From contig CAYPFA010000003.1 in assembly GCA_964410025.1 (NCBI GenBank), positions 85,259-149,258 of the forward strand: DNA of 64,000 nucleotides, in the 5' to 3' direction. Under the pieces are notes generated by a model that worked only from the letters and a program-made list of their open reading frames with translations, ran no database searches and had not been told where the DNA came from. The translations under genes and the position numbers were made by a program. Source of the DNA: Candidatus Woesearchaeota archaeon. GTDB lineage: Archaea > Nanobdellota > Nanobdellia > Pacearchaeales > GW2011-AR1. Each line of letters begins with the position of its first letter. Positions within the stretch are counted from its first letter, which is position 1. This document shows positions 3,411 to 53,104 of this stretch, in pieces.

Positions 3411-3756
3411 TTATTGTAGCTTCTCAACTACAGTTAGACTCTCAGAAATTTTCCAATGTAATTTCTCTGGCTTTCCATATTTTATATAATCACGGAAATC
3501 AATTTGTTTTTCGAATTGTCCAGCATTATCAGAATAACAAGCTGACGTGATATAGCAGGTTGGAAAGGTTTCTTGAGTTGCAATAAATGAGACCCCATAA
3601 AAGACTCCAGAATCTTCTATGTTTTTTGATATAAAACCCAATCTCATGTCCTAAATGACAGGGCCTATGTTCTTCGCATTCACGACCAAAAAAACGACGG
3701 AGTGTTAAAACCATATCTTGTTCTACTTTAAGTACGTTTTCTAAATCTTTTTCCAT
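3411..3756 (-). pseudogene. possible frameshifted ORF (two overlapping frames)
   Basis: ORFs 3529-3771 and 3411-3647 overlap in different frames on the same strand. One frameshift near 3640 would join MEKDLENV.. to ..ISKNIEDSGVFYG.. as a ~115-aa product. Confidence 0.3.
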
Positions 3757-3768
3757 AAAAAACAACCC

Positions 3769-3803
3769 CAACTTCTCTTTATAAAAATTATTGTGGTGAA
3801 GTT
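3769..3803 (-). promoter_or_regulatory. 35-bp promoter/leader repeat, copy 2
   Basis: Identical to 3332-3366. Lies 13 nt upstream of ATG at 3756. Confidence 0.4.
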
Positions 3804-3852
3804 CAATTAAATCAAAAACATTTATATATAGCCGTTTTATTATATTTAAAAG

Positions 3853-8494: not shown

Positions 8495-8646
8495 TCCCCT
8501 CACCAGGAGTTGAACCGGGGTTTCGCGGGTCCTGCCGACATCATATTCTAACGAATACAATCTAATCACATTTCATCCTTTGCCGTTGGGCAATGTCCAT
8601 GCTAGTAAACTACAGCCACGCGCACTAACCGTTGTGCTATGAGGGG
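8495..8646 (-). tRNA. tRNA-Tyr (anticodon GUA) with 80-nt intron at 37/38
   Basis: Exon 1 is 8646-8610: CCCCTCA TA GCAC AACGGTTA GTGC G CGTGG CTGTAG. The intron is 8609-8530. Exon 2 is 8529-8495: C CCGCG AAAC CCCGG TTCAACT CCTGG TGAGGGG A. C1-G72 is typical of archaeal tRNA-Tyr. One C-U mismatch in the T stem. Confidence 0.85.
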
Positions 8647-44650: not shown

Positions 44651-45277
44651 ATGTTTGAAATAACTATAGTGATAGATATTTTTGTGTATACTTTTATAGG
44701 AGTTTTCCTAGTAAATCTTATTCCCGTGTTCGGACCACCAACCTGGATGGTTCTTTCCTACATAGGGCTATTTTATGAAATACCATCAATACCTCTTTTT
44801 GTTCTGACTGCGCTTTTGGCAGCAGTTTGTGGAAGATTTTTACTTATACTTTTCTCTAAGAATATAATACGAAATAATTTATTTCCAAATAAGTACAAAA
44901 AAAATATGGACTATTTGCGAAATCGTTTTGAGAATAAACCATACTGGATATCCTTAATATTTTTTATTGATGCAGTCACGCCGCTTCCTTCAGATCAACT
45001 TTTTATTGCCTACGGATTAACAGGACAGAAAGCCCGATATGCACTTATTCCATTTGCATTAGGAAGATCCTTTACATACACTTTCTGGGCGATTACATCG
45101 ATAACTATTGCAAAACAAGCAACACTAAAAGCGCTCACAAACTTTTCATTTTTTAGCACCACATTCATCCTGATGGAAATTTTGCTTTGTTTTCTTTTAT
45201 ATTTTTATGTAAAGATTGACTGGCAATATCTAATTGTGAATCATCGTTTGAGATTAATTAATCACAATAAAAATTAG
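44651..45277 (+). CDS. DedA/SNARE-associated (VTT-domain) membrane protein
   Basis: 208 aa, multi-TM, with a GPPTW..L motif typical of DedA. Its stop codon overlaps the left att repeat by 2 nt. Confidence 0.7.
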   Translation: MFEITIVIDIFVYTFIGVFLVNLIPVFGPPTWMVLSYIGLFYEIPSIPLFVLTALLAAVCGRFLLILFSKNIIRNNLFPNKYKKNMDYLRNRFENKPYWISLIFFIDAVTPLPSDQLFIAYGLTGQKARYALIPFALGRSFTYTFWAITSITIAKQATLKALTNFSFFSTTFILMEILLCFLLYFYVKIDWQYLIVNHRLRLINHNKN

Positions 45278-45291
45278 AACGCCCAAACCGG
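45276..45291. repeat. att site, distal copy (orphan tRNA-Asp 3' end)
   Basis: agaacgcccaaaccgg is identical to 52975-52990. It contains the complement of CCGGTTTGGGCG, the tRNA 3' end. Confidence 0.8.
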
Positions 45292-45366
45292 ACGATTAGA
45301 GAAAGTATAACGCTCAACGTTATTTTGATAAATATAACAAGCTATACGACTATATAAACATTCACA

Positions 45367-46434
45367 TCACTTGTCTAATATCTTTTTTAGATTATCTAAA
45401 AACTCCTTTGTGTCTGCAAAATAATTGGGGTAAGCTTTCCTTAAATCGTTTGACGCGTCAACGCCAACAAGAACCACATCATATTCTTTTTTCCCTTGGT
45501 TTCTTTTTTCAGCTTTGGCGTAGTCTTCTACAGCCTTTTCTTCTTGTCCATATTGATAACCAGTAATATTTAACTTTTCTTCAAGGATATTCAGTTCTAA
45601 TAAAAAAAGTTTTAAATTTGGTGTCTCCTTAGATGCTCTTTCAAAAACCTGAACTGCCTTTGTCCAGCCATCCATAACTTTGATTACGTTTAATTCTTTC
45701 GCTATACGTTTAATTTCCAAATATAGCTCTTGCGGATCTGTAGGTGTATCGGGAATAAGAGGAGTGTTTTCCATAATAGCGAATGCAGAACTAACTAATT
45801 TGAAAAAATCCATCCATTCTTTTTTACCCTCATTAGACTTAATAGCCTGTCCTGTAAAAAAATCGGCAGTTTCTATAGCTGTAGCCCACAGATGCTGTAA
45901 CTTTGATCTTATCTGTACTTCTACGAGCAACCCATTGTATTCCTTTTTTCCTTCCTTATCACTCTTATATCTATAAATCAAATGAATACTTCTATAGCCA
46001 TCCTTCTTAGGGTAGGTTATATAGTCCTTCTCGTTTACTTTTTTATGTTTTAAGTCTCCACGGATGTACCCTTCTTTGTATAATTTTTGAGCCAGCTCTA
46101 CATTTGATGTAACGACCCTACATCCTCCAATATCTTGCATTTGAGATAATTTCATAGTTGGCTCTTGACCACCATATTTTCTTCCAAGTTTTTTTAATAT
46201 AGAAGGCAGTCTTTTTAGTCTTTGAACAGCCAATGAGTCCTTATCTATTTTTTCAGAAACATCTTTTAATCTTTTTTTAAATATATGCATAGGATATCGG
46301 TGAATTGCCCTCCAATTGTCCAAAATAGTTAAGGCTTTATCCAGCTCCTCGGAGGTGCTTTTTTCATCCAACAAGATATCTCCTGCCCAGTCTACTCTTG
46401 ACTTACTATATCCTTTTGGCTTTGCCCATACCAT
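45367..46434 (-). CDS. RelA/SpoT-domain nucleotide pyrophosphokinase (small alarmone synthetase / toxSAS-like) with extended C-terminal domain
   Basis: Synthetase motifs are RLKRLPSILKKL (RxKxxxSxxxK), DIGGCRVV, GYRSIHLIY and EVQIRSKLQHLWA. A ~150-aa helical C-terminal extension follows. Confidence 0.85.
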   Translation of the reverse strand: MVWAKPKGYSKSRVDWAGDILLDEKSTSEELDKALTILDNWRAIHRYPMHIFKKRLKDVSEKIDKDSLAVQRLKRLPSILKKLGRKYGGQEPTMKLSQMQDIGGCRVVTSNVELAQKLYKEGYIRGDLKHKKVNEKDYITYPKKDGYRSIHLIYRYKSDKEGKKEYNGLLVEVQIRSKLQHLWATAIETADFFTGQAIKSNEGKKEWMDFFKLVSSAFAIMENTPLIPDTPTDPQELYLEIKRIAKELNVIKVMDGWTKAVQVFERASKETPNLKLFLLELNILEEKLNITGYQYGQEEKAVEDYAKAEKRNQGKKEYDVVLVGVDASNDLRKAYPNYFADTKEFLDNLKKILDK

Positions 46435-46545
46435 AGAATATTGCGGATGAATAGATATTTAAATGTTGGTATTGCGCGGAAGTCTATCGAATATATAAAT
46501 TATAAATATAATGGTTTTACTTTTTTTGCGCGGTTATTTATCTTT

Positions 46546-47031
46546 TTATTGTTTTTTTGCGCAGTTATGTTTTACCGGCACCCTTTGCTCGTGTAAGTTT
46601 TCTTTTCTTGTAGACAATATTTCTTTTTGAGTGTTTCTGAATTCTTCCCACATTCTTTTAACGTTAGGATGCATTTTGTGATTAGAAATATACTTGCTGC
46701 TTTTTTTAATATTACATTTTAATCTGTCGATACTTCTCATTTGCGCAACCTTATCAGAAGAAATCATACCTTTCTCTTTTTTTATTGAAGTAAGTGGAAA
46801 ATCATATTTAATGAATTCTTTCCTGCTCATTGGTTTAAAGTCATAGCGAATAAATCTTTCTCTTAAATTTCGTATATATGAAACTCTACATTTGGAATTA
46901 TGATCTATTCCCAATTCTTCGACGACTTTCTTAGGTATTTGTATAGTCAGAGTAAAGTATTCCTTCTCGTTTTTTATGTGCTTTTTTCTTGAAGGGATTA
47001 CTGACTTATCCAAAACCCTTATCTTATCCAT
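46546..47031 (-). CDS. hypothetical protein with N-terminal AbrB/SpoVT-like segment (candidate antitoxin/regulator)
   Basis: 161 aa. FTLTIQIPKKVVEELGIDHNSKCRVSY resembles the swapped-hairpin DNA-binding motif. Lies directly upstream of the RelA/SpoT gene on the same strand. Confidence 0.45.
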   Translation of the reverse strand: MDKIRVLDKSVIPSRKKHIKNEKEYFTLTIQIPKKVVEELGIDHNSKCRVSYIRNLRERFIRYDFKPMSRKEFIKYDFPLTSIKKEKGMISSDKVAQMRSIDRLKCNIKKSSKYISNHKMHPNVKRMWEEFRNTQKEILSTRKENLHEQRVPVKHNCAKKQ

Positions 47032-47065
47032 ACTGGTAGATGCTTTGTTTGTTTAAATACCTTAT

Positions 47066-47081
47066 TTTTCTGCGCAGAAAA
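47066..47081. promoter_or_regulatory. perfect 16-bp palindrome in a divergent promoter region (candidate operator)
   Basis: ttttctgcgcagaaaa is its own reverse complement. Lies 35 nt upstream of the 47031 start and between divergent genes. Confidence 0.4.
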
Positions 47082-47209
47082 TTTTTATGAACAATGAGAA
47101 ATTAAATAAATTATGAGCGTTAGAAAAAATGCAAACTGGGTGGATGTAATAATTAGCTTAATTAAATATGAGAAGAAGCCTCACGAGGAGGCTCCTTCGG
47201 ATAAGATAG

Positions 47210-47473
47210 ATGTTAAAACAAACACGGGCTCTTAAACCACGAGGCTTGTATTCCAAGTTTATAGAAAGACTTAGAGAAGCGGAGAAGTCTATTCCGCTTG
47301 GGTCTAAGAAAGATTATATTCCTTTTCCAGTTATATTTGAAAAAGTGTGTAGAAACTTTTCTCTCAAAAAAGACGATGCATTTGAAATTTTATTTATGCT
47401 GAGGGATTTCGGATTCATTGAAGTCGTTCCTTTTCACGGAATTAAATTGAAGTATGAGGTGAAAAATGTCTGA
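47210..47473 (+). CDS. hypothetical small protein (possibly wHTH)
   Basis: 87-aa ORF on the element. Confidence 0.45.
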   Translation: MLKQTRALKPRGLYSKFIERLREAEKSIPLGSKKDYIPFPVIFEKVCRNFSLKKDDAFEILFMLRDFGFIEVVPFHGIKLKYEVKNV

Positions 47474-47675
47474 TAAGATTTGGGGAGTAGATATCACTTC
47501 TGATTTGCCAATCTATGAAGACGAAATAGATGCCTTCTTAGAAAGAGAGAGACGAGCCTCAGGTAAGAAGAGAAAAAAGAAGAATAAACATAACTCTTCC
47601 AACTATAATATATATTATATTTTGTATTACATTTTTAATATAATTATACTAATTAAAGGAGTATCTTTTATTTAA
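47466..47675 (+). CDS. hypothetical small protein
   Basis: 69-aa ORF overlapping the previous stop by 8 nt. Basic patch, then a hydrophobic tail. Confidence 0.3.
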   Translation: MSDKIWGVDITSDLPIYEDEIDAFLERERRASGKKRKKKNKHNSSNYNIYYILYYIFNIIILIKGVSFI

Positions 47676-47685
47676 TCTTTTCTTT

Positions 47686-47943
47686 ATGGTGTATCATCCA
47701 GACAAAATAGTTTTTAGAAAGAGCCTTTCTTTTAGATTAAAAAAAGAGCACTTCGAAGCATTGGACGAGTTATTAGAAAGACATCGAGATCAATATGACT
47801 CTTGGAGCCATATAGTGCGGTGTGCAATTATACATTTACTAAATTATGAGCGAGAGCAGGAGGAAAAACAAAATGCAAGAAATAAAAAATCTAAACATTT
47901 CGGAAAAGGACAAAATCTGTTTCGAGGAACTAAAAATTCCTAA
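47686..47943 (+). CDS. ribbon-helix-helix (CopG-like) protein
   Basis: LSFRLKKEHFEALDELLERH is a typical RHH N-terminal strand-helix. Confidence 0.5.
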   Translation: MVYHPDKIVFRKSLSFRLKKEHFEALDELLERHRDQYDSWSHIVRCAIIHLLNYEREQEEKQNARNKKSKHFGKGQNLFRGTKNS

Positions 47944-48091
47944 GACTATTGCCGAGATTGCCGTAATCTTAGATACAACGTATAATTATGCGTTTACAAA
48001 GGTGAAAGTGTGGGAAGCGAGAGGCTGGGTAAAAAGAATTCAGTCTAAACGCGCTGTTAAATACTATCTTAATGGAGACGAACTTCAATAA
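47873..48091 (+). CDS. winged-helix DNA-binding protein
   Basis: TIAEIAVILDTTYNYAFTKVKVWEARGWVKR is wHTH-like. ATG 47873 is preceded by GGAGGA; the ORF track starts at 47846. Confidence 0.5.
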   Translation: MQEIKNLNISEKDKICFEELKIPKTIAEIAVILDTTYNYAFTKVKVWEARGWVKRIQSKRAVKYYLNGDELQ

Positions 48092-48373
48092 GAATAAACC
48101 TGTCGAATAGATCTTTCCCAATGTAAGTAAGAAAAGGAAAGAAAAGGAAAGAAGCACAAAACAAAGTATAAAACGCTCACTCTGGACATTGTCAAAGTAG
48201 GCACGGGCTTCCATTTTGAAAAGTTGTCGCAATCGTATCTTGATGACACGATGATTTTTGGGAATTTTTTAAAATAAACAGCGTTTTATTAAGTATTAAA
48301 GAGCCTTATGTTTCGCGGAGTATATCTTACTGCTTAATAAAACATTTAAAAACTTGTAAATGTTAAAAAACAA

Positions 48374-49252
48374 ATGAGTAAAACGCAAGTTCTTGCATTT
48401 ATTTTAAGTATTCTTGGACTAATAATCCCAGTAGTAGGCTTAATATTCTCCGTTCCAGCGCTACTAATGAGCATTGCTCAACTAAAAAAGAATAAGAGCG
48501 GGATGATTGTCGCCACAAGAATTATTTCCATAGTTGCCATAATCGTTTCTGTGGTTGTCTTAATCTCATTTTATTTCTTCTTTTCTTATTTGCCAGAAAA
48601 ACAATTCCAAGAAACTAAGGTATCTTTAATTCTTACTCCGGAGAGTAGCTCTGCAAATATGCCGTATGATTTAGATGTTCTAATGTCAAGGTTCGCTATG
48701 TCCTCTGGAAAAGTTGAAGGAGTGATTAAAGAGAACAAAATTCTACTAAACGTAAGTTTATCTGATTTTGATAGCCAAATATATAGATACCTTATCAATA
48801 CTTCGTTCTTTGAAGCAAAAATTGGTAATGACGTTGTTTTTACGGGCGGAGAGGATATTACCTACGTGGGCACAACTGGTCAAGATGCAGGAATCTATTC
48901 CTGTGATCAATATAGTGAGGGCTATTCGTGTCAATTTAGATTTATAATCTATTTGTCTAATTCCGCGGCACAAAGGCAAGCTACGTTAACCTCTGACCTT
49001 TCTACGAATCCATCTTATGGCGGAAAATACTTAGATAAACCACTCGATTTATATGTTGATAATAATCTAGTTGATACGCTACAAATTGGCACAGATTTGA
49101 GAGGCAAGTTTGTTTCACAAATTCAAATTTCTGGTTCTGGAAATGGGCTAACAACCGAAGAGGCATACGAGAATGCAAAGATAAATATGAAAAAATTGCA
49201 GATCTCATTAAAATCAGGCAGACATCTTTCTTCTAACTATTTAGTTAATTAA
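48374..49252 (+). CDS. membrane-anchored protein with extracellular domain
   Basis: 292 aa. Two N-terminal TM helices, then a soluble domain. Confidence 0.55.
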   Translation: MSKTQVLAFILSILGLIIPVVGLIFSVPALLMSIAQLKKNKSGMIVATRIISIVAIIVSVVVLISFYFFFSYLPEKQFQETKVSLILTPESSSANMPYDLDVLMSRFAMSSGKVEGVIKENKILLNVSLSDFDSQIYRYLINTSFFEAKIGNDVVFTGGEDITYVGTTGQDAGIYSCDQYSEGYSCQFRFIIYLSNSAAQRQATLTSDLSTNPSYGGKYLDKPLDLYVDNNLVDTLQIGTDLRGKFVSQIQISGSGNGLTTEEAYENAKINMKKLQISLKSGRHLSSNYLVN

Positions 49253-49273
49253 GCACTAATCGAAACTCTCTCT

Positions 49274-50464
49274 TTATGGAGTTAGTGTTTTTATTAAGTA
49301 TGTCGCATTTTGTGAATTTGGATTATATACTACTAGTCCTCCGGTGCTCACATTACAATTCATCTGTTTATTTCTTTGATTGTAGAAAGAACAACCTGGA
49401 TAACTGCTATAGTCAGACCCTTGCATAAAATTATTGTAATCTTGCTCAGAAAGAACAAAATGAACCGTTATAGGTAAGGTGCTATTAAATTCAAGTCTAA
49501 GTTCGTTTGTCTTTGTTGTATCGGTAAATGGATAATATGCAACATATCCTGCTCGTAAAGTATCATTTGTTACTGCAGGTATAAGCGTTATTTTTTTAAT
49601 TGGAGGAATATAATATTGAGAAGAAATAATATTTTGCGGAATAACTTTTGTGCTAATGACTGTACCCAAATCATCTAAACACTGACATTCCATATCTTGG
49701 GTATTTGGATTATAGATATAAGAGAATTTTGTGGCAGCAGGTATATCTTGACAATAGCTTTCGCAAAATGAATCCATATTACTTATCTGCTGTGGGGTAA
49801 AAATATCTTCTGCGGAAGATACATTCATAGACGCAATACTGAAAATTCCCCATATCAAACTCAATGCTATGAAAATAATTATGATTGAATTGACAATACC
49901 TAATTTTGTTTTCTTAAATGTATTGGCAACTCTTTCTGAAAAATTAAAATAAAGCAACCAAAATATCGCGACAATAACATTCCTACCATCACTACTATAA
50001 ACATCACCAATTAAATAAGATGGCAAACCAAATGAAGAAATAACACTATAAATGCTGCTTGTTAATAAAAATAAATAAAATCCCTTCGCGAATCTTATAG
50101 CATTTTCAGACTCATTGAAAATACTTACTCCACAAAAAATACTCAAACCGATAACAAAGAGGTTGTATATTATAACCACTCCGCTATTATCTCCTGAAAA
50201 TAAACTAAATAATATAAACACGGGAGAAATAACTGTTAAAACAAATGCAGCAAACCAAAGCCATCCTCCGACGCCAGATTTCTTTTCGTCTTTCTTGCTC
50301 TTTTCTTCTTTTTTATCTTCGGTTTTTGTAACAGATAATCTATCGCTTATTCGTTTGGGAGAATCTTTAATCTTGCTCCAACAGTCTTTACAAAAATAGC
50401 TATCATTATCTGAGAAAGAATCCCAAAGCGAAGTTTTTTTCTTGCACCTTGAACATAAAACCAT
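49274..50464 (-). CDS. multi-pass membrane protein with N-terminal zinc ribbon and Cys-rich extracellular C-terminal domain
   Basis: The N-terminal zinc ribbon reads CSRCKK..CKDC. It is followed by ~5 TM helices and a C-terminal domain with several Cys. ATG at 50464; the ORF track starts at GTG 50473. Confidence 0.55.
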   Translation of the reverse strand: MVLCSRCKKKTSLWDSFSDNDSYFCKDCWSKIKDSPKRISDRLSVTKTEDKKEEKSKKDEKKSGVGGWLWFAAFVLTVISPVFILFSLFSGDNSGVVIIYNLFVIGLSIFCGVSIFNESENAIRFAKGFYLFLLTSSIYSVISSFGLPSYLIGDVYSSDGRNVIVAIFWLLYFNFSERVANTFKKTKLGIVNSIIIIFIALSLIWGIFSIASMNVSSAEDIFTPQQISNMDSFCESYCQDIPAATKFSYIYNPNTQDMECQCLDDLGTVISTKVIPQNIISSQYYIPPIKKITLIPAVTNDTLRAGYVAYYPFTDTTKTNELRLEFNSTLPITVHFVLSEQDYNNFMQGSDYSSYPGCSFYNQRNKQMNCNVSTGGLVVYNPNSQNATYLIKTLTP

Positions 50465-50556
50465 AGTTTTCACTATATTAGTTACTATTTAAATTATTTG
50501 ATATTATAAGCACCAGATTAAGAAACATTTTAATATCTTCTTATATACTAAATTTA

Positions 50557-51687
50557 ATGGTTCATTGTGATGAATGCGGGAAGAAAATTGAAGGATTACC
50601 CTTTCATTGTAAATATTGCAAGGAGAATTTTTGTGATATTCACAGATTACCAGAAGACCACCATTGCACCGGAATTGATAGAAGCAATATTTTTTATAAA
50701 TTAAAAAAAGAAAATATAGAAAGAACAGATTGGTCAGCAGACAATGAGGCAGAAAAAAATGTATTGCACAACAAAGAAAAACATTCTGGAAAGAAGAAGA
50801 ATAGGTTTTCAGAAATTTTGGACAAAAATCTTGATTGGTTAAACGATCGTGAGCATCATTCATATGACTGGAAGGGAAGGGCAAATTATCTTCTAACTAT
50901 TTTAGTCGTATTTGTTGTTTCTATAATTGCCTACAAGATATTTTATGATAATGCTATAAAATTGAATAGTTTTAATTTTTGGATAATCAATCTCGCAGGA
51001 GTTCTTCTTTTGATCTCTATTTTTTTTATAATTAAGTATGGATGGAAAATTATAACAGAAATCCCAAATGTAATCAAGAGGCAAAGGAATTGGTTAAGGT
51101 GGTTGATTATTATTCTAATTTTAATTGCTGTGTGGCAAGCATATGAGAATAGAGATACGCTATTCAATCCCATATTGGATTTTAAAGAAAAAACAAATTT
51201 TTCATATTTTAATCCTCTTGATATAAACTATACGAGTGCAGGAGAAAAAACAAAAGACGTCTCAGGAAGCTTGTTTGAGAATTTGAAAAATACGGTTACC
51301 GTTCCAGAAAGAGACTATGATCTCATCGAAACCCGAATTTTTGAATTGGTCAATGAGGAGAGAACAAGATATAATGCCAGACCATTAAAATTAAGCTCTA
51401 ATCTTGACAGTCTTGCAAGAAAATGGAGTGAAAAGATGATTGCAGAAAACTTTTTTGAACATAGCGGATATAATGTTGGAGAAAATATTGGAGAGGTGCC
51501 AATACATTATAATGTTGTTGGCTGCGGATCTACCTACACAAATGAAGCTATGGCACAATGTTTTGTTACTGGATGGATAGAAAGTCCCGGGCATCATCAA
51601 AATATGATTGATAAGTCATATTCAGTTACGGGAGTAGGTATTGCTTGTGATATCTCGCAGTGTAGAGCAACTCAAATGTTTAGTTAA
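50557..51687 (+). CDS. AN1-type zinc finger / 3-TM / CAP (SCP/PR-1, YkwD-like) domain fusion protein
   Basis: The N-terminus CDECGKK..FHCKYCKENFCDIHRLPEDHHC matches the AN1 pattern, and three TM segments follow. The C-terminal domain (RYNARPLKLS..LARKWSEKM..FEHSG..SPGHHQNM..VGIA) matches CAP. Confidence 0.7.
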   Translation: MVHCDECGKKIEGLPFHCKYCKENFCDIHRLPEDHHCTGIDRSNIFYKLKKENIERTDWSADNEAEKNVLHNKEKHSGKKKNRFSEILDKNLDWLNDREHHSYDWKGRANYLLTILVVFVVSIIAYKIFYDNAIKLNSFNFWIINLAGVLLLISIFFIIKYGWKIITEIPNVIKRQRNWLRWLIIILILIAVWQAYENRDTLFNPILDFKEKTNFSYFNPLDINYTSAGEKTKDVSGSLFENLKNTVTVPERDYDLIETRIFELVNEERTRYNARPLKLSSNLDSLARKWSEKMIAENFFEHSGYNVGENIGEVPIHYNVVGCGSTYTNEAMAQCFVTGWIESPGHHQNMIDKSYSVTGVGIACDISQCRATQMFS

Positions 51688-52985
51688 AACTTACGTATTG
51701 TCTTTATTTTCTTCTTAATTAACTCCAAAATTTCTGGATCTTGAAGAAGTTTATTCATTGTGTCATCCGCAACACTTTTCTGAGTTTCTGCTTCAACAAT
51801 CTTATTCGCTTCTTCTTCATTTAAACTCATTCCACACTTCTTGCAAAATATACTGGTAGACTCGTTTACTTCCTTACATCTAATACAAACAATGTTTTTC
51901 AAAACATCTTTTGGCTTCTGCTTCTTAACTTCTAATCCATTTTCTGCAAGAATAACATTATCCGTCTCCCTTCCGTTCATATGAATGTAAACTCCGCACA
52001 TCTTGGACGATTGAGCCCAACCGAGATATTGTTTCATACCTGCCTCAGGCATTACAGAAGCTAATTCAGTTGCTCTCGAATGCCTAAAAAGATGGTTGTA
52101 TATTCGTTTAGTTATTCCTGCTCTTTTGGCACTATTCTTAATTATGGAACTAAGTCTCGAATAACTTAATATATGGTCTGACTGCGTGTTATACCAAAGC
52201 GACGCTTCTCTATCTGTATTCAACGGATGCTGGTTTATCCATTCTTTTAGATATGGCATTGACTTAACCAGAAGGACTTGTCTCATCCCCGTTTTACCTT
52301 CTGGAAACATTATTCTTGCGCCATAATCTTCAAAAGAAATATTTTTAATTTTTAGACTACCAACTTCTGAAATTCTTCCTCCACTTTCTGCAAGAACAGA
52401 AACAAAACATTTGTCTCTTGTTGTTTTACAAAACTGGATTATCTTCTTAATTTCTTCTGGGGTTAGAAGCTCTTCTGGGAGTTTAGATTTATTTTGTGCA
52501 ATATTTATGTTAATCCACTTAACCCTTTCCGGAAGCGCATCGCCTCTTTCTGAGCCTTCAATAAATCGATAAAGTTTTCTAATCATTATCTTAATTCCTT
52601 TTTTTGTTTCTTCTGCAAAAGGTTCGGCATTTAACTCAGAAACAACACGCCTTAGATCTTCTTTTGTAGCCTCTTGAAAATCTTTCTTTAAATGTCTATC
52701 AAACCAAACAATATCAACTAAATATCTTCCAACTTTGGCATAACCAATATTTTCACTTAGTAAATAGTTCTTGAAAGAAATTGCTGTCTTTTTATTATTT
52801 TCAGAATAGAAATATGTTGGCTTACTTCTCTTGCTTGTTTCTTTTAGAACTTCTTCTGGATGTTCAATTCTAAAAACAATTCTTTCAAGTTGGTGTTTGT
52901 AGTTGTGTATGCTCATATCGACGATAAAATCGTCCCAGCTTATAAAGGACGACCGTCGAGCATATAACTTTTCCAGAACGCCCAA
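51684..52985 (-). CDS. int: tyrosine recombinase / integrase with C-terminal zinc ribbon
   Basis: Catalytic pattern GGRISEV (Arg), HLFRHSRAT (HxxR) and GVYIH (Tyr), plus C-terminal CIRCKE..CKKCG. The ORF reaches into the tRNA-Asp 3' end, so the true start is probably internal. Confidence 0.88.
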   Translation of the reverse strand: MGVLEKLYARRSSFISWDDFIVDMSIHNYKHQLERIVFRIEHPEEVLKETSKRSKPTYFYSENNKKTAISFKNYLLSENIGYAKVGRYLVDIVWFDRHLKKDFQEATKEDLRRVVSELNAEPFAEETKKGIKIMIRKLYRFIEGSERGDALPERVKWININIAQNKSKLPEELLTPEEIKKIIQFCKTTRDKCFVSVLAESGGRISEVGSLKIKNISFEDYGARIMFPEGKTGMRQVLLVKSMPYLKEWINQHPLNTDREASLWYNTQSDHILSYSRLSSIIKNSAKRAGITKRIYNHLFRHSRATELASVMPEAGMKQYLGWAQSSKMCGVYIHMNGRETDNVILAENGLEVKKQKPKDVLKNIVCIRCKEVNESTSIFCKKCGMSLNEEEANKIVEAETQKSVADDTMNKLLQDPEILELIKKKIKTIRKF

Positions 52986-52990
52986 ACCGG
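52975..52990. repeat. att site, tRNA-proximal copy
   Basis: agaacgcccaaaccgg overlaps tRNA-Asp positions 62-73 plus 4 nt downstream. Confidence 0.8.
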
Positions 52991-53050
52991 GAATCGCACC
53001 CGGGTCCTCGCCGCGACAGGGCGATGTACTGACTACTATACTATTTGGGC
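52979..53050 (-). tRNA. tRNA-Asp (anticodon GUC)
   Basis: GCCCAAA TA GTAT AGTAGTCA GTAC A TCGCC CTGTCGC GGCGA GGAC CCGGG TGCGATT CCCGG TTTGGGC G. All stems pair. The T-loop has G rather than U at position 55. Confidence 0.9.
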
Positions 53051-53104
53051 AGTTAGATAAAAAATCATAACAAAATTCCTTTTTAAAATTATCTTTTTGA
53101 ATTA

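Follow-up and report, generated by a model that had tools for sequence, protein, structure and literature searches.

The stretch of DNA analysed here, hereafter the window, comprises 64,000 nucleotides (nt) of a contig of a Candidatus Woesearchaeota archaeon (CAYPFA010000003.1, positions 85,259 to 149,258), the host having a GC content of about 33%. Within it lies a segment, E1, bounded by two copies of a 16-nt sequence, one of which forms the 3' end of a tRNA-Asp gene. E1 (45292-52974; 7,683 bp without the repeats, 7,699 bp with one of them) is very probably an integrative element, mobile now or in the past, of a DPANN archaeon (Woesearchaeota/Nanoarchaeota). The features that define its two ends are these:

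44651-45277, + strand: left-flank host gene for a multi-pass membrane protein of 208 amino acids (aa), from the list of open reading frames (ORFs); weak VTT/DedA similarity
45276-45291, + strand: attL core, in which the final 12 nt of tRNA-Asp and 4 nt beyond recur as an orphan copy
51684-52916, - strand: intact gene for a tyrosine integrase, 410 aa, with a C-terminal CxxC...CxxC zinc ribbon (Pfam Phage_integrase, E 7.2e-25)
52917-52974, - strand: right arm of E1, from core to integrase start, containing GGAAAAGTTATATGCTC
52975-52990, + strand: attR core, by reading of the sequence the last 12 nt of tRNA-Asp (CCGGTTTGGGCG) plus a 4-nt trailer (TTCT)
52979-53050, - strand: intact tRNA-Asp(GUC) gene, the integration target (Rfam, 62.4 bits; placed at 52978-53051 by ARAGORN)

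A preliminary description of this DNA, made from the sequence alone, had reported an exact 16-bp direct repeat, the right-hand copy of which covers the last 12 nt of tRNA-Asp(GUC) and 4 nt beyond, and both statements hold. The 16-mer, AGAACGCCCAAACCGG, occurs in the window as two exact copies, both on the + strand, and their number stays at two when up to two mismatches are tolerated; by chance one would expect 0.01 matches, and none of 100 shuffled sequences contained two or more. Its copies are confined to attachment (att) junctions, which disposes of the suggestion that it might be a dispersed genomic repeat; the tRNA gene lacks an encoded CCA. The left copy had been described as an orphan tRNA 3' end at the stop of a DedA-like host gene: it does overlap the TAG stop codon (45275-45277) of the 208-aa ORF, but the family label is doubtful, the match to the VTT/DedA domain (profile positions 3-118 of 123) reaching only E 0.026, under the Pfam cut-off. 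After the attL core, on the tRNA-sense strand, comes TTCTAATTTTT, a T-run resembling a native archaeal tRNA trailer, which we read as the probable displaced original trailer of tRNA-Asp.

The genes on both flanks are housekeeping genes, as had been proposed: they encode a Trp/Tyr-class aminoacyl-tRNA synthetase, a nitronate monooxygenase-like protein, a beta-CASP RNase, a U32 peptidase and NIF3, with MCM, TruB and diphthamide synthase farther left of E1. An intron-containing tRNA gene elsewhere in the window (8495-8646) points to an archaeal host. The beta-CASP protein shares 76-78% aa identity with those of Candidatus Woesearchaeota metagenome-assembled genomes (MAGs) and 56-60% with those of Nanoarchaeota MAGs, which places the host among the DPANN archaea. 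Comparison of composition with the flanks, a check that the preliminary description had called for, gave a divided answer. GC content does not set E1 apart (0.330, against 0.332 and 0.322 in the flanks), but tetranucleotide usage does: its L1 distance from the host is 0.169, about 7 standard deviations beyond that of host windows of equal size (0.098 +/- 0.010, maximum 0.121).

Site-specific integration into a tRNA gene, as first suggested, is borne out by the tRNA 3' repeat, the intact recombinase gene at the tRNA-proximal end, the housekeeping flanks and the deviant tetranucleotides. The course of events would have been as follows. The circular form of E1 bore an attP that shared 16 nt exactly with the 3' end and trailer of host tRNA-Asp, and the E1 tyrosine integrase recombined this site with the tRNA gene; the element-borne copy would now complete tRNA-Asp (attR), and the original 3' end would have been displaced to the other end of E1 (attL), where it meets the stop codon of the adjacent gene for a membrane protein. 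The integrase gene (int) would stay whole throughout, with its probable promoter right beside the core, a mode of integration that we take to be pNOB8-type and not SSV-type, applying the label by the 'not split' criterion alone.

The integrase and its small partners

The integrase lies at the tRNA-proximal end of E1, as previously described, but its length is probably 410 and not 433 aa. The longer frame is the maximal ORF, which starts with TTG and runs into the repeat, whereas public gene calls start at the ATG at 52916 (MSIHNYKH), the gene of the closest homologue starts MDIHRYK, and homologues are about 390-400 aa long. Catalytic residues R181, K208, H275, R278, W300 and Y310, placed from motifs, agree with the alignment to XerA (5HXY, E 3.6e-10), the nearest solved structure. 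The gene is whole, with the core 59 nt upstream of the ATG; attP is thus outside int. Within the right arm, GGAAAAGTTATATGCTC has the look of a BRE/TATA-like promoter for int, and the motif GGGCGTTCTG..AAA..TATA..TGCTC is common to this arm and the element that carries the closest integrase homologue. Bacterial promoter and terminator models, run on this archaeal DNA, were uninformative.

The integrase belongs to a large family whose members are about 390-410 aa long. Among the candidates scored, 450 proteins match the integrase, at 45-57% identity over about 99% of its length, and nearly all come from DPANN MAGs; no relatives were found in IMG/VR. The contexts of the homologues, known in part only, are typical of mobile elements, being variable and rich in orphan and defence genes. 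In contig L070, from another DPANN genome, the homologue comes directly after tRNA-Ser(CGA) and is followed by a p87 homologue (see below), orphans, a reverse transcriptase (RVT_1), an AAA_5 protein and a ribbon-helix-helix protein; a second integrase paralogue (L071) is on the same 681-kb contig. L070 9856-21197 is possibly a defence island belonging to this element family, and no distal repeat was present within the 11 kb available. The closest homologue (56% identity; L072-L075) is preceded by a fragment resembling the T-arm and acceptor 3' end of a tRNA, read by eye, which is joined to three different upstream sequences, depending on the contig; the genes downstream comprise small ORFs and two helicases, one HsdR-like and the other UvrD. 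A lenient Rfam scan for tRNA fragments beside homologous integrases returned none. In L076-L079 the integrase homologue is followed by small ORFs and an RnlA-toxin-like protein. One further arrangement was seen in L074, where a second, 40%-identical gene of the integrase family (1-894, - strand) stands directly upstream of the tRNA-like fragment ahead of the P0002-type integrase, which points to a further tandem array.

Three small genes of E1 encode probable or possible DNA-binding proteins:

47210-47473, + strand: p87, small winged-helix protein (homologues and AlphaFold model)
47686-47943, + strand: p85, small protein, ribbon-helix-helix-like by eye (sequence inspection only)
47846-48091, + strand: p81, small winged-helix protein, start uncertain owing to overlap with p85 (homologue in the P0002 element)

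Homologues of p87, at 34-45% identity, stand beside every integrase homologue examined (L070-L079; four independent contexts), and p87 is the sole non-integrase gene conserved across the element family. Because a p87 homologue adjoins the integrase in all four contexts, the pair appears to be the conserved backbone of the family, the remainder being variable cargo; in E1 we count p81 and p85 with this backbone. The p87 family comprises 174 representative clusters at E<=1e-3; a word-index search gave only two relatives. The AlphaFold model (pLDDT 84.6) has H-H-H-beta-hairpin topology; there was no match to p87 among Pfam or PDB sequences, and Foldseek returned generic winged helix-turn-helix matches only, at E >= 0.1. 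We infer that p87 is a regulator or a recombination directionality factor. p81 has a 49%-identical homologue in the P0002 element (E 1.7e-18) and a weak MarR_2 match (E 0.043), and p85 a weak homologue in the same element (32% over 57 aa, E 8e-5). Together, p87 and the other small DNA-binding proteins would regulate integration or excision.

Two further elements at the tRNA-Asp gene

The right side of E1 is polymorphic across contigs whose flanks are 100% identical. L001 (JGI 3300045131) tracks the window to 52989 and then enters an unrelated sequence, X, while other contigs end at 52989 (L003), 52960 (L011), 52976 (L012) or 53032 (L009 and L010). Another contig, L008 (JGI 3300044990), carries the right flank and the tRNA at 99.99% identity over 10.5 kb, with one mismatch at 52975 (C for A), and then enters another unrelated sequence, Z. 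The NCBI contig CAZKZU010000027.1 (23,452 bp; L081, L083), which starts exactly with AGAACGCCCAAACCG-CCGTG, that is, at the core, matches 2,303 nt of X and 3,852 nt of Z at 100% identity: X (L001 18325-20627) and Z (L008 10445-14456) are the two ends of one element of about 23.6 kb, E2. It uses the same 14-nt core, 52976-52989, as crossover region. The order in L001 is left flank, E1, core, E2 end, and that in L008 is the other E2 end, core, tRNA, right flank; some strains therefore have left flank, core, E1, core, E2, core, tRNA-Asp and right flank, the window strain being without E2. Since E1 lies distal to E2 in this array, it was inserted before E2. The E2 junction would read AAAGTCCC-GAACGCCCAAACCG-CCGTGACAGG, and the reconstructed E2 attP has significant inverted repeats around the core (22/27 nt; score 12-13, against a shuffle maximum of 11).

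The E2 integrase is 24% identical to that of E1, and beyond the core the two elements share no DNA or protein similarity, oriT-like sequence included. E2 encodes a TrbC/VirB2-type pilin (58.8 bits) and a 987-aa VirB4/TraG-type P-loop ATPase with a PrgI-like N-terminus, as well as two DNA methyltransferases, a TIR protein and an AIPR protein, making it a candidate conjugative or DNA-transfer element of a DPANN archaeon. A full-text search of the literature found no paper joining DPANN, conjugative elements and VirB4, save one on Patescibacteria. The first 3.8 kb of the E2 contig are bracketed by an inverted 75-nt repeat (92-164 and 3733-3806, 87% identity), which may mark an invertible or separately acquired module; inside it are genes for 261-, 163- and 160-aa proteins and a response-regulator-like gene.

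Two other ways of accounting for these contigs were rejected. Z had been considered as ancestral chromosome, given that a related species (L067 1-160, Ga0172378_10007985), whose right flank has about 73% nt identity, retains 27 of 29 nt of it after tRNA-Asp; Z proved to be one end of an element of 23.5 kb that has an integrase of its own, a pilin and a VirB4-type ATPase. An inversion between inverted att sites, invoked to explain L001, failed on geometry, and the E2 contig fits exactly. As L067 keeps an E2-type arm at this place, E2-like elements would be present at tRNA-Asp in more than one species.

A third element, E3, absent from the window, attaches at the opposite end of the gene:

53032-53050, - strand: E3 attachment core, the first 19 nt of tRNA-Asp (GCCCAAATAGTATAGTAGT), from attP forms and the L002 junction

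L002 matches the window through the entire tRNA and diverges at its 5' end (L002 18382-18400) into a sequence Y, which is the end of E3. The genes of E3 include a MarR-like regulator, a 365-aa integrase and an AEP-type primase. Its uninterrupted attP form is present in five samples (L089-L093; L089 10560-10800) and its integrated junction in L002; integration at the 5' end would part tRNA-Asp from its native upstream region. The presence of E3 at this site explains why L009 and L010 end at 53032. More generally, the ends of Logan contigs (52989/52960, 52976, 53032) fall where single-base branches between junction types lie, given the 31-nt word that we assume for this assembly. The tRNA-Asp site is clearly recombinogenic, and since E2 and E3, both integrase-bearing, are variously present and absent there in the same population, they lend independent support to integration at this gene.

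The cargo of E1

Between the integrase and the left repeat the remaining genes of E1 are:

45367-46434, - strand: CapRel-type RelA/SpoT protein, 355 aa (Pfam RelA_SpoT, E 3.5e-19)
46546-47031, - strand: orphan of 161 aa, encoded upstream of the CapRel-type gene and in its orientation (Pfam, PHROG, NCBIfam and PADLOC without a match)
47466-47675, + strand: p69, orphan 69-aa ORF, called in JGI and Logan contigs (no family match)
48374-49252, + strand: 292-aa protein, transmembrane segments at the N-terminus and the extracytoplasmic part large (from its translation)
49274-50473, - strand: 399-aa protein (396 aa in JGI calls) with N-terminal zinc ribbon, DUF2569 membrane domain (Pfam, E 1.2e-7) and extracytoplasmic C-terminus
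50557-51687, + strand: 376-aa protein with AN1 zinc finger, transmembrane region and CAP/SCP (YkwD-like) domain (Pfam)

Sequence-profile scans of the ten E1 ORFs against Pfam, PHROGs, NCBIfam and PADLOC found no capsid, terminase, replication initiator (Rep), primase, relaxase or type IV secretion system (T4SS) or other secretion gene, in agreement with the earlier statement that no replication or capsid gene is recognisable; Pfam and NCBIfam likewise gave no VirB4-type ATPase, pilin or coupling protein within E1. The only PHROG matches are the integrase, phrog_4773 (unknown function; the CapRel-like protein) and the CAP-domain 'moron', none of them of a structural category. The 376-aa protein matches Pfam CAP (E 1.8e-14), zf-AN1 (E 5e-10) and TIGR02909 (E 4.8e-17), and the 292-aa protein has sub-threshold matches only, among them a SecD-like region (E 3.7e-7, far under the cut-off). 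The 161-aa orphan is found solely in E1 copies and is unlinked to CapRel homologues elsewhere. One correction applies to the description of the cargo as orphan, regulatory or membrane genes throughout: 45367-46434 encodes the CapRel-type protein and is no orphan.

This protein matches the PADLOC candidate PDC-S33 over profile positions 1-342 of 349 (E 2.7e-118), phrog_4773 (E 2.6e-97) and, from residues 9 to 351 (against 15-368) and including the C-terminal AYPNYF, PDB 7ZTB/9ERV (E 5e-44), the former of which we take to be CapRel SJ46. The synthetase motifs DIGGCR and EVQ.R..LQH.WAT are kept, and the protein appears to consist of a toxin domain resembling small alarmone synthetases and, fused to it, an autoinhibitory domain at the C-terminus. 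CapRel SJ46 pyrophosphorylates the 3'-CCA of tRNAs when triggered by a viral capsid protein and so protects from infection (summarised in bioRxiv 10.1101/2024.10.26.620412). By analogy, the N-terminal domain of the E1 protein would pyrophosphorylate tRNA 3' ends, halting translation once the C-terminal domain lets go, and the protein may act in abortive-infection defence or as an addiction module; to E1 it would give either such defence or post-segregational stabilisation. The two proteins are alike in full-length similarity, in motifs and in being encoded on an integrated element, SJ46 being a prophage-encoded fused toxin-antitoxin; that of E1 differs in being archaeal, in belonging to a subfamily unusually conserved over its full length, and in having relatives in chromosomal contexts in other DPANN.

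Those relatives are numerous: homologues 66-83% identical over the full length are present in many Nanoarchaeota, Woesearchaeota, Pacearchaeota and Aenigmatarchaeota MAGs, with a C-terminal half as conserved as the N-terminal half and a mean column identity of 74%. In two other genomes (L087, L088) the gene is in an ordinary chromosomal setting without integrase, in one of them between giant surface proteins and in the other immediately ahead of the ribosomal L3 operon. Variation would be expected of CapRel sensors; conservation of this degree is unusual in a defence sensor and may reflect a conserved function in the cell or a very recent spread. RelA/SpoT proteins, interpreted as stringent-response enzymes, have been reported in 41.7% of Woesearchaeota (PMC8407392), and a survey of RelA/SpoT homologues (RSH) has capRel among the bacterial groups and describes RSH proteins as rare among archaea (PMC3153485). 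There is evidence here that the widespread DPANN 'RelA/SpoT' genes encode full-length CapRel-type fused toxins, which would alter their functional interpretation.

Mobile element, remnant or island

The identical 208-aa left-flank protein is encoded on 11 public contigs (JGI, NCBI, Logan). L001-L007 match the window at 100% across attL, and L002 and L011 match attR, the tRNA and the right flank, so that the window arrangement recurs in independent assemblies. For E1 itself, the empty site would read CACAATAAAAATT-AGAACGCCCAAACCGG-GAATCGCACC and the circular junction CATATAACTTTTCC-AGAACGCCCAAACCGG-ACGATTAGAGAAAG. Assembled contigs, as distinct from raw reads, were searched with MWWDWYYMGAACGCCCAAACCGSVVDDHBM, a pattern that takes in all combinations of the known arms; it has three matches in JGI metagenomes, none of them an attB or attP of E1 and only L067 relevant, and none in IMG/VR. 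The Woesearchaeota MAGs found through the beta-CASP gene (76-78% aa identity) have no tRNA-Asp nearby and so offer no empty-site comparison.

Several observations weigh against E1 as a mobile element. All 11 of the left-flank contigs run on into E1, and neither attB (left flank joined to tRNA) nor attP was found among them, in JGI metagenome contigs or in IMG/VR. Logan contigs cross attL unbroken, which suggests to us that attL has no other junction in the samples concerned. In the attP reconstructed for E1 neither inverted repeats nor arm sites reach significance (best score 8, shuffle mean 7.6), and no element resembling E1 and bearing its cargo was encountered elsewhere. The gene for the CapRel-type protein, finally, is not element-specific, given its 66-83% identity across DPANN and its chromosomal contexts elsewhere. 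With no attB or attP, 11 of 11 contigs carrying E1, no arm sites and a CapRel gene that is not the element's own, E1 may be an immobilised remnant. The absence of an empty site does not, however, count against integration, because all 11 left-flank contigs represent one 100%-identical strain. Having no replication, packaging or transfer genes, E1 cannot spread alone; it is either a non-autonomous element or an immobilised island. In the sampled strain E1 is fixed, with newer elements stacking on its tRNA side.

It is less likely that E1 is what is left, the integrase-proximal or the distal part, of a larger provirus or plasmid, its replication and structural genes lost and the immobile island kept for its cargo. 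The missing replication, capsid and transfer genes, fixation in all 11 contigs without any attP or attB, and the position of E1 farthest from the tRNA in the array, which makes it the oldest insertion, all fit such decay; yet the two repeats have stayed exact, the integrase has its full length and every catalytic residue, its conserved partners p87, p81 and p85 are intact, and elements with homologous integrases, as far as their partial contexts go, also have no obvious replication genes near the integrase. It is distinctly unlikely that E1 is an integrative mobilisable element, excised by its own integrase, transferred by a co-resident conjugative-type element such as E2 and gathered with it by accretion at the shared att site. 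E2, with its pilin and VirB4/TraG-type ATPase, does stand in tandem with E1 at the 14-nt core, and E1 has an integrase and no transfer genes, but the elements are unlike beyond the core, their integrases are 24% identical, no relaxase or origin of transfer was recognised in E1, and no excised E1 was seen.

Two further explanations would do away with E1 as an integrated element. The recombinase could be a XerA-type resolvase of the chromosome, and the repeat could be due to chance or be dispersed: XerA is its best solved-structure match, JGI labels members of the family XerD, and the family is widely conserved in DPANN at 45-57% identity. This is very improbable when the repeat, expected 0.01 times, coincides with a tRNA end, when the integrase is some 100 aa longer than XerA (XerA/XerCD resolvases have about 280-330 aa) and has extra N-terminal sequence and a zinc ribbon, when two paralogues share one 681-kb contig, when the family's contexts are variable and rich in orphan and defence genes, and when the composition of the segment deviates. 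The preliminary description had named grouping with such resolvases, together with a block shared by all related genomes, as a reason to abandon integration; a phylogeny-free comparison of length, copy number, context and tRNA repeat points the other way. Nor can we give much credence, indeed hardly any, to junctions created as metagenome assembly chimeras at the tRNA gene. Contigs do diverge exactly at the core or the tRNA ends, but cores of only 14-19 nt should, in our judgement, not confuse an assembler; assemblies of different samples, from JGI, NCBI and Logan, have these junctions in common at 100% identity, and, if a 31-nt assembly word is assumed, the Logan ends sit at single-base branches between junction types.

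An integrative element, mobile now or formerly, remains our preferred reading, and in the absence of any capsid, replication or transfer gene the term 'cryptic integrated element' (CIE) describes it. In a catalogue of Thaumarchaeota, tRNA genes are the commonest target, receiving 57% of integrations, CIE range from 2.6 to 98 kb, and tyrosine-recombinase elements form arrays at one site (PMC6563490). E1 resembles these CIE (PMC6563490) in having the integrase as sole hallmark, a tRNA gene and short direct repeat as site, a size under 20 kb, many orphans, and a place in an array that re-uses an att site; it differs in its DPANN host, in a separate family of integrases, about 400 aa long, which have a zinc ribbon and p87 as constant partner, in having no replication protein, and in a cargo that includes a CapRel-type toxin. 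The differences are thus of host lineage, integrase family and cargo, and the known principles of site-specific integration are unaltered.

In streptococci, integrative conjugative and mobilisable elements and their cis-mobilisable derivatives (ICE, IME, CIME) form tandem arrays by site-specific accretion. As in these and in archaeal tandem proviruses, E1, E2 and the tRNA are joined through one core with the newest element next to the tRNA; here, by contrast, the integrases are unrelated (24% identity) and a third element sits at the tRNA 5' end. SSV1-type elements likewise target an archaeal tRNA gene, but their integrase gene is split in two by integration, whereas that of E1 is intact with the core upstream of it, and the left end of E1 holds no int fragment.

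DPANN cells have tiny genomes and live attached to hosts; to our knowledge, their mobile elements have barely been catalogued, and gene flow and antiviral defence among them are poorly understood. The E1 locus offers a case, defined to the coordinate, of tRNA-targeted integration in a woesearchaeote, and the integrase and winged-helix module could mark such elements in DPANN MAGs. More tentatively, and we think it rather unlikely, E1 could represent an undescribed, widespread family of small elements of Woesearchaeota and Pacearchaeota, defined by the zinc-ribbon integrase of about 400 aa and p87, which would shuttle single-gene defence or toxin cargo from one DPANN genome to another and be mobilised in trans by co-resident T4SS-bearing elements stacked at the same tRNA site; candidates for such cargo are CapRel in E1 and the RnlA-like, HsdR/UvrD and reverse transcriptase genes in its relatives. 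In this natural population three elements, one cryptic, one conjugation-like and one primase-bearing, compete for one tRNA gene. Of more interest than E1 itself are the integrase/p87 module, the pilin and ATPase of E2, the targeting of the tRNA 5' end by E3, and the CapRel identity of DPANN RelA/SpoT proteins.

Elsewhere in the window, a stretch of 152 nt on the - strand (8495-8646) matches the tRNA model at 38.8 bits and was missed by ARAGORN; as the model is only 71 positions long, this is an intron-containing tRNA gene.

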